This document shows, one piece after another, positions 35,996-58,725 of a stretch of 64,000 nucleotides of DNA. Both the position numbers and the translations under genes were made by a program. Source of the stretch: Torpedo marmorata (taxonomy: Eukaryota); assembly GCA_977017645.1 (NCBI GenBank), contig OZ360234.1:18414001-18478000 (forward strand), in the 5' to 3' direction. Numbering within the stretch: position 1 is the stretch's first letter; every line of letters begins with the position of its first letter. The notes beneath the pieces were generated by a model that did not search any database, was not told the origin of the DNA, and saw only the letters and a program-made list of their open reading frames with translations.

Positions 35996-36311
35996 GTTTG
36001 TGAGGTTCATTTGTGGTTGAAGAAAAAAAAACTCCAGTCATTGGGTACAACTGAACCATACTGATTTATATACCGTATATTTCGGAGTATAAGTTGACTT
36101 GCGGATAAGTCGACCCCCCTTTTTCAGCCCCATTTTAATGGTTTTATTGTATATCTGGCGTATAAGTCGACCCCCAATTTTCGGGCTGTCCGGGCCTCCC
36201 AGCAACAACCCAAAATTTGTTACAACAACCCAATCGCCAAGTAACAAGCTGTAAATTAAGCAAGTAAGTAAAAAAAACAGTTAAAAAAAATCTTTGCTTC
36301 TGGCCGGGAAG

Positions 36312-36469
36312 ATGCCAAACGGAGCTGGGTCCAAGTCTTTAGCTTCAAGCTGCAGCCAGAGTCGGCGACGGGCAACTCCATTCTCCACATCGGTTGCAGT
36401 GCTTTCCGCATCGAAGAAGTCGCATCGCTGCCCAAGTGTGCTCGGTGCAGGAACCACGGCTTCGTGTCG
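36312..36469 (+). pseudogene. dmrt1: Captured fragment of a dmrt1-like first exon (N-terminus and start of DM domain), frameshifted and truncated
   Basis: ATG 36312 gives MPNGAGSKSL...SASKKSHR. After a -1 shift at 36428 the frame reads LPKCARCRNHGFVS. Compare DMRT1 MPN...SKKSPRLPKCARCRNHG(YA/FV)SPLKGHK. Confidence 0.85.
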
Positions 36470-36470
36470 G

Positions 36471-36720
36471 CTCCCGGGCAGGAGCGGTGACCTTGTTCTC
36501 TCGGGCAGGTGCGGCGACCTCGTTCTCCCGGGCAGGTGCGGCGACCTCGTTCTCCCGGGCAGGTGCGGCGACCTCGTTCTCCCGGCAGGAGCGGGAACGG
36601 ACTCGGACTACGTGGCAGGAGCAGGAACCTCACCCTACCGGCCAGGAGCATCGGCCTCGGCTTACCGGGCAGGAGCGGCGACCTCAGGCTCCCGGGTAGG
36701 AGCGTGGACCTCGGGCTCTA
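36471..36720 (+). repeat. 27-bp GC-rich minisatellite, about 9 copies decaying to the right
   Basis: Unit ctcccgggcaggtgcggcgacctcgtt. Confidence 0.9.
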
Positions 36721-37289
36721 CAATTGTAGAATGTCTGGGTGGTTTATGGCAGCGCCCGGTGGTGGGGAGGTGCTTCCAGGGTCGACCTATACGCCAAATC
36801 GGTTTTTCATGGGTCGACCTATACGCCGAATCGGGTTTTCAAGGGTCGACTTATACGCCGCAACGGCGTGGAGTAGTTTTTGAGCTGATTTTCAGGTCTC
36901 AAAAGTATATCCGGCGTATAAGTCGACCCCTGTTTTTTGAGAGATTTTTGAGGGTTTCAAGACTCGACTTATACGCCGAAATATACGGTATTCTAAATTT
37001 CAATCTCCTACCCAAAGAATGGAAAAGTTAAAGGAGGGGATAATAATTAGCTCCAGTAAATTGGGATAGGGATGCAAATATTGGCTGCACCTCCGCCAAG
37101 CAACTTCCTTGCATTTTCTGGCTTCTATAGCCCAACATGATCAATGCAGTCATTATTGATCAGATGTCTCCAACAAATATTTGCCAAATATAATATCCTT
37201 GGTTTTCTTTGTATATGGACATTCTCAGTTATTAGCCTTGTCATAAACAGCACCAATTTGCCAATTTACTTATTTTGGAGTATGATAAT

Positions 37290-51925: not shown

Positions 51926-52018
51926 CAACGTCCAATGGGTCATACGAAGGTTTGGAGAACAGAAATGGTGGAGTGTGCAAAACTCGATCCATGAAAATAA
52001 TTATGAAAGTTGGACAAG
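51926..52018 (+). CDS. efnb1: Ephrin-B1 internal coding exon (equivalent to exon 3), end of the receptor-binding domain
   Basis: 93-nt exon bounded by ttcattccAG and GTaaac. It translates (x)[30 protein letters not shown](D), matching EFNB1 [30 protein letters not shown]. Phase 1/1. Confidence 0.95.
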
Positions 52019-58278: not shown

Positions 58279-58339
58279 ATTTAGATTATCTGTTGCTTAT
58301 GTCCATTAGGTTTACTTTCTCCCTTTTCTTTTTCCACAG

Positions 58340-58725
58340 CTAACGATAGTCAGATCAAAGACAAGCTGAACAACAGCGAAGGAATCTTTGGTTCCAAAAT
58401 GGCACTCTTCGCTGCAATTGGAGCAGGATGCGTCATTTTTATCCTCATCATCATCTTCCTTGTGGTTCTCTTAATAAAATTTAGAAAGCGACATAGAAAG
58501 AGTTCCCAGCAGAGGTCAGCAGTCCTTTCCCTCAACACGTTGGCCAGCCCAAAGTGTAGTGGAAATAGTGGCTCAGAACCCAGTGACATCATAATCCCGC
58601 TGAGGACTAACGACAACAACTACTGTCCTCACTATGAAAAGGTTAGCGGTGACTACGGTCATCCAGTGTATATCGTTCAAGAGATGCCTCCACAGAGCCC
58701 TGCAAATATCTACTATAAGGTTTGA
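58340..58725 (+). CDS. efnb1: Ephrin-B1 terminal coding exon: transmembrane helix, cytoplasmic tail, PDZ-binding motif
   Basis: Acceptor cccttttctttttccacAG. Translation includes [33 protein letters not shown] and [49 protein letters not shown]-stop. The ALFAAxGAGC and LRTxxNNYCPHY segments are B1-type rather than B2/B3. Confidence 0.97.

Follow-up and report, generated by a model that had tools for sequence, protein, structure and literature searches.

A pogo-type transposon family carrying a captured 5' piece of dmrt1

The window, a stretch of 64,000 nucleotides, contains at 36073-36988 a 916-bp, TA-flanked non-autonomous element of the pogo group (Passer type). This element is probably one of thousands of pogo-type non-autonomous copies in which the unspliced leader, exon 1 and the beginning of intron 1 of dmrt1, a sex-development gene, have replaced the transposase gene, likely through a single capture during repair; these copies were likely moved in trans by related transposase-bearing elements and are likely functionless for the host. 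The copies have inverted ends on both sides of the cargo, an identifiable parent (dmrt1, locus L043) and independent target-site duplications; the family is thus a Pack-TIR, with a copy number far above those given in the available part of the animal survey (PMC8277862).

The element and its donor

The two 25-bp inverted ends differ from each other at two positions, and the flanking sequence and arms match the transposase-bearing element L099 with 92.6% identity over 36070-36177 and 88% over 36770-36991. The dmrt1-derived sequence lies between the arms (Table 1), its left border at ~36171 being set by the alignment blocks and the oldest copies. On the right side, two words of 36719-36749 occur in 14 and 19, respectively, of 29 cargo-free old elements and are absent from 50 kb of the dmrt1 locus. 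The short GC-rich unit that follows has no counterpart in the dmrt1 locus, nor in L099 outside its arm.

Table 1. Features of the element, in window coordinates
Feature	Position	Strand	Basis or remark
Left TA target-site duplication	36071..36072	.	TA/TA in 44/49 copies with both ends
Left terminal inverted repeat, 25 bp	36073..36097	+	Inverted-end comparison
Left subterminal arm of pogo transposon	36098..36170	+	Identity to L099
dmrt1 upstream/5' leader	36171..36311	+	Host L043 1165-1350; 41 bases lost near start
dmrt1 exon-1 coding remnant	36312..36473	+	Host L043 1351-1549
DM domain start	36428..36473	+	C55, C58 and H61 retained (3/8 zinc ligands)
27-bp minisatellite	36467/36471..36718	+	Homologous to dmrt1 intron 1 array, L043 1701-2376
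Remnants of transposon's own 3' region (right capture junction)	36719..36749	+	Words in cargo-free elements
Short GC-rich repeat unit	36750..36778	+	Two units in many copies
Right arm, 32-bp subterminal repeats	36779..36963	+	Identity to L099
Right terminal inverted repeat	36964..36988	-	Inverted-end comparison
Right TA target-site duplication	36989..36990	.	Read from sequence

The cargo and the host dmrt1 are identical at 263 of 291 aligned bases (90%). The alignment score of 394 compares with a maximum of 88 among 200 shuffles, and blastn gives E 2e-59 for host dmrt1 and matches of only 33-41 bp for other DM genes, which confirms the first-pass annotation in naming dmrt1 as the donor. Among 30 DM loci fetched, L043 was the sole long match to the element. 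This locus lies at G000:C2:246.43 Mb; its protein begins MPNGAGSKSS, its best PDB match is human DMRT1, and exon 2 is located 1.8 kb downstream. Two further DM genes, which we take to be dmrt3 and dmrt2, follow it within 0.4 Mb. The minisatellite of the element matches the array at the beginning of dmrt1 intron 1, and the template was therefore unspliced. We also considered that the minisatellite had moved from the transposon into dmrt1, and rejected this: the oldest copies join the array to unique intron sequence and the cargo-free parents lack it. No element ends were found in 50 kb around dmrt1 (about -21/+29 kb), hence no relic of the capture site. The host array (L043 1701-2376) has ~22 units of 28-30 bp; the oldest elements have about four, each of 27 bp. 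The host array may have grown since the capture, and its length could be polymorphic. Three DM genes at G000:C22:158.07-158.18 Mb (L031, L038 and L055) form another cluster similar to dmrt1-dmrt3-dmrt2.

The first-pass annotation had described a TA-flanked 916-bp element with 25-bp inverted repeats, a frame reading MPNGAG...SKKSHR from 36312, a DM start reading LPKCARCRNHGFVSAPGQER up to a stop from 36428, and a 27-bp minisatellite after it, and all of these are present. It had linked the two frames by a single -1 frameshift. The DM start does lie in a different frame from the ATG, so the net shift stands, but it did not arise in one event: relative to host dmrt1, the window copy has five indels (+1, +6, +1, -44 and -1), that is, three insertions and deletions of 44 bp and 1 bp in the exon-1 remnant. 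The first +1 base is private to the window copy among 30 copies, and because of it this copy has its MPN...KKSHR frame. Pfam DM scores the remnant at E 7e-5, below the cut-off. The proposed host-derived extent of 36312-36469 holds as the core but is too short, as the cargo begins at ~36171 and takes in the minisatellite; likewise, capture of the dmrt1 start was correctly recognized, whereas three things had been overlooked: that the minisatellite is intron-1 cargo, that a transposase partner exists, and that older copies hold more of the gene.

Dispersal, transposase partner and history of the cargo

The family 26-mer of the terminal repeat has 9961+9914 exact occurrences genome-wide. The word from the DM start has 2,366 exact matches (1178 and 1188 on the two strands) and that from the leader 7,847, one of which is the host gene; as exact-match counts are lower bounds, the DM start is present in 2,366 copies or more and the leader in 7,846 or more. 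The leader word was exact in 30 of the 56 sampled copies that contain the leader, and a rough extrapolation puts the total of leader-bearing copies at ~15,000. A dispersed family had been suspected at first pass, and the counts bear this out against a single, one-off insertion. Both ends were found in 26 of 30 loci. In a sample of 60 DM-start copies, drawn from the first 100 listed, both ends fell within the fetched stretch in 49, 44 of them with TA on either side; the target duplications sit at independent sites and the flanks are unrelated between copies. Thirty end matches from the start of C1 represented 23 elements, of which 13 contained dmrt1-derived sequence, 10 contained transposase sequence and none contained anything else.

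Four elements of 2.1-2.4 kb share their ends with the window family, three with a full 445-aa frame and the fourth without a start. The partner protein has the Pfam domains BrkDBD, HTH_Tnp_Tc5 and DDE_1 and, as counted by eye on the translation, a DD35D catalytic spacing; partner and window family both have a TA duplication and inverted ends of at most 40 bp. Compared by description, these features would place the partner in the Passer family of pogo as characterized in the available part of PMC7386202, the likeness being in the DD35D spacing, the three domains, the TA duplication and the short inverted ends, and the difference that the window copy is without transposase. The Passer-type transposons with intact 445-aa frames (L099, L100 and L102) are possibly still active.

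A search with a host piece absent from the window copy recovered the host gene and at least four long-cargo loci, a number that is a lower bound. In the oldest form (L172-L174, ~800 bp), host sequence is contiguous from L043 1165 to ~1613 and is followed, after a 62-bp deletion, by unique intron-1 sequence and a short array. These copies keep the leader, and exon 1 as far as the end of the zinc-binding module; the deletion takes out the splice donor and the C-terminal DM stretch (ERQRVMAAQ), the C-terminal part of the domain being the proposed recognition helix in the part of PMC1931443 available. L175 differs from the oldest form by the 44-bp deletion that the window copy also has, and each old long-cargo copy bears an additional lesion. 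Later junctions are nested, with progressively larger deletions, and in the youngest group, which keeps the leader and minisatellite only, the ATG is joined directly to the array. We had considered a one-step deletion from exon to minisatellite through 6-bp microhomology and dropped it, as older copies show stepwise deletion. A tree rooted on the host shows derived bases building up in this order as well; it is without support values, and misalignment inflates its youngest branch. The non-CpG pairwise divergence is 5.8% (n = 3) in the oldest group and 6.1% (n = 13) in the next, 3.3% (n = 11) and 2.9% (n = 40) in the intermediate groups, and 2.2% (n = 7, 87 columns) in the youngest.

Searching for an end pattern of the oldest generation gave 190 exact matches; of 30 fetched, 29 were cargo-free and one contained dmrt1. 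In comparison with the cargo-free elements of that generation, the left capture junction shows CC microhomology and the right one none. The arms of the four cargo groups are each closest to a different cargo-free generation, with identities of 92, 94, 95 and 97%. Of the youngest copies, 6 of 9 share a 35-bp unit with the young partner, and this unit occurs in 0 of 60 DM-start copies. From the matching of arms by generation and the distribution of the 35-bp unit we infer that arms have been exchanged. One genome holds the complete record, from the cargo-free parent through the founder form and its nested deletions to the exchange of arms, together with the intact-ORF partner, and this record makes it testable how Pack-TIRs form and whether a 5' gene cargo aids their spread.

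The window element sits in sense orientation within an ephrin gene, between the ephrin-domain exon and the exon at ~51928. Motif scans found no ephrin-domain exon within the window; it lies 33.5 kb upstream, giving an intron of ~85 kb, which also contains many retroelement-like frames. Ephrin-B-like exons are seen on the forward strand at window positions 51928-52018 and 58285-58722, and a PDB search with the last exon gave no match. The placement reported at first pass, sense and in the intron of efnb1, is upheld for orientation and intron; the paralogue name is a putative reading of the C-terminal sequence. The sense orientation carries no weight because the genome-wide strands of the DM-start word are even.

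Origin, spread and possible effects

The series is best accounted for by a repair event in which synthesis left the transposon template for the dmrt1 CpG island and then returned. The resulting chimera would have spread by transposase supplied in trans, and successive master copies would have dropped the DM coding sequence and gained new arms from the transposons of the time; the inserted copies would then have been methylated and have decayed neutrally. The cargo-bearing share is 1 of 30 among old-generation ends and 13 of 23 among current-generation elements on C1. This rise of the cargo lineage is poorly explained by passive carriage and would need a lucky master copy, although for a single lineage one such copy would do.

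As the first-pass annotation concluded, the window copy cannot make a DM protein, its zinc ligands being incomplete and out of frame. The ATG and the DM start share a reading frame in 14 of the 54 copies that could be scored, which would give a truncated peptide at most. A whole dmrt1 DM domain was absent from every copy examined, and the analogy once drawn to dmrt1bY and dm-W fails on this point. Judging from their coding sequence, the copies are likely passengers and not working genes. In the four older groups, divergence at CpG sites is 3-5 times that at other sites, as expected for methylated repeats; the youngest leader sample contains too few CpGs for this comparison.

Cargo-bearing elements make up 1 of 30 old-generation ends but all 13 non-transposase elements in the current sample, and the youngest group retains the leader with the coding part gone; both are what one would expect if the dmrt1 leader and CpG island were useful to the element, for example by giving accessibility in germ cells, such that it out-transposed ordinary deletion derivatives and dropped its coding part. 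Higher copy numbers are also seen for bat Helitrons with 5' gene ends in the part of PMC4224331 available. We nevertheless regard a useful cargo as unlikely. A single lineage amounts to one event in history, the capture left out the CCAAT box and promoter, which lie upstream of host 1165, the leader itself is partly deleted in L063, L065 and L066, and the CpGs of the copies decay. Nor did we find a full DMRT binding site: there is only a half-site-like word, with a best match of 10/13 to the published probe core that was equalled in 27 of 200 shuffles. A further reading would see in the leader a germ-line pass with which the lineage outlasted four transposase generations and became the main non-autonomous form, the harmful DM part being purged and the thousands of dmrt1-like loci acting back on sex development by way of small RNAs or chromatin; we find this quite unlikely.

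Regulation of dmrt1 in trans by small RNAs or directed methylation could draw on thousands of templates that are ~90% identical to the leader and present on both strands, and the copies appear to be methylated, judging by their CpG decay. The donor island, however, is intact, with a CpG o/e of 0.80 and 2 of 28 CpGs lost compared with 3-6 in old copies, numbers that are small and confounded by selection on the exon, and the ~10% divergence would limit pairing. This retention is weak evidence against heritable methylation in trans and does not favor the effect on dmrt1 through small RNAs, methylation or CpG seeding that had been suggested at first pass; we consider such regulation highly improbable. 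Retroposed dmrt1 fragments, or segmental duplicates that chance to lie in transposons, are nearly negligible as an explanation. The cargo begins ~185 bp before the ATG, possibly close to the transcription start, and a first capture from an unspliced RNA template would be compatible with this position. On the other hand, intron-1 sequence is present and a poly(A) tail absent, unlike in a processed pseudogene, and the junctions common to all copies, the TA-flanked inverted ends and the unrelated flanks refute retroposition and duplication for the spreading step.

Other sequencing runs, known systems and a second family

Four sequencing runs were compared over dmrt1 exon 1, and three of the four, with different organism labels and from different studies, share coverage holes. 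In those three, the captured parts are hundreds to thousands of times deeper than the deleted parts, with the joints at identical places; run depths are not copy numbers and only the covered/uncovered pattern was used, and one of the three runs may be from the species of the window. The fourth run, X12, showed a low-depth dmrt1-like contig alone and no cargo excess, which is not proof of absence. Where the element has its +6 insertion relative to the host, this contig too has 6 extra bases, and two of its bases are as in the element; these shared states are likely ancestral, so that dmrt1 exon 1 as it once was is likely retained in the element, whose copies could also serve as lineage markers. 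Run X8 has two different contigs over dmrt1 exon 1 (host 1351-1661 and 1395-1604), which are perhaps the gene and a long-cargo copy.

In the available part of the survey by Tan et al. (2021), animal Pack-TIRs number 370 cases in 100 genomes, four of them multicopy, with three copies in the frog multicopy example and 0 cases in elephant shark (PMC8277862); the term "dmrt" is absent from its supplements in a search of 12 files. The pogo-dmrt1 element resembles these Pack-TIRs in having inverted ends on either side of a host fragment whose parent can be named, a GC-rich piece from the 5' end of a gene, and dispersed copies with separate target duplications; microhomology, common but not obligatory at Pack-TIR capture junctions, is seen here at one of the two. 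It differs in that one capture has reached at least 2,366-7,846 copies over four transposon generations. Here a vertebrate cut-and-paste transposon has amplified a captured gene piece to thousands, compared with a few copies at most in that survey as far as available. Closest in scale is the bat HelibatN3, with the NUBPL promoter, 5' UTR, exon 1 and part of intron 1 in about a thousand copies according to the accessible part of PMC4224331; it likewise amplified a gene 5' end with intron sequence in a vertebrate, although it is a rolling-circle Helitron, not a cut-and-paste element, and took another gene. In medaka dmrt1bY and Xenopus dm-W, two working sex-determining genes that owe a binding site or an exon to transposons (PMC2820524 and PMC9250109, in part), dmrt1-derived sequence is also joined to transposon sequence; here, in contrast, it is the transposon that carries a broken dmrt1 piece, without a whole DM domain in the copies examined. 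Rice Pack-MULEs, as cited in the available parts of PMC8277862 and PMC4224331, share with the hAT-like family below the multicopy capture of GC-rich gene fragments, but belong to a different superfamily and kingdom. A literature search that had most subscription papers beyond its reach found no published report of the pogo-dmrt1 family, and Repbase or Dfam may catalogue it as a repeat.

The genome-wide search for DM domains gave 87 matches out of 150 scored candidates, of which ~8 look like genes, and most of the others belong to an unrelated element with 15-bp ends and 8-bp duplications. We class this element putatively as hAT. Its cargo in these cases is exon 1 of a DM gene plus up to ~1 kb of genomic sequence, the donor (L034, G000:C2:256.478 Mb) presumably being dmrta1. 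The cargo takes in the entire DM-domain part of that exon, the splice donor and intron sequence; with a pyrimidine tract and CAG just upstream, it resembles a ready-made cassette exon. Such copies include L035, L040, L046, L048, L053, L103-L110 and L177-L195, and number at least 30 by exact match and several dozen by Pfam; among 21 checked, an upstream Met is in frame in one and the splice donor survives in 15. With so many DM matches and so few gene-like ones, dmrt1/dmrta1 primers, probes, read mapping and gene counts are confounded in this lineage. The hAT-like family as a whole has 1,352 exact left ends, and 20 sampled ends (L196-L215) carried dmrta1 in no case and many different GC-rich cargos, for example an exon encoding zf-HIT (L198/L199) or CRAL/TRIO (L213). 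These unrelated first exons leave the idea that DM genes draw transposons in particular without support; first-exon capture is common in this genome and a DM-specific explanation is therefore unnecessary. Two hAT-like elements, L212 and L215, contain the minisatellite and right junction of the pogo-dmrt1 element, and likely represent one chimeric transposon captured by another. A divergent DM-domain copy, L057 (G000:C2:256.448 Mb), lies 30 kb from dmrta1 and has related flanks at a further DM match, L176 (C79). On C1, L120/L121 and L198/L199 form two near-identical pairs, both ~67.5 kb apart, and their equal spacing points to a segmental duplication, by which some copies arose without transposition.
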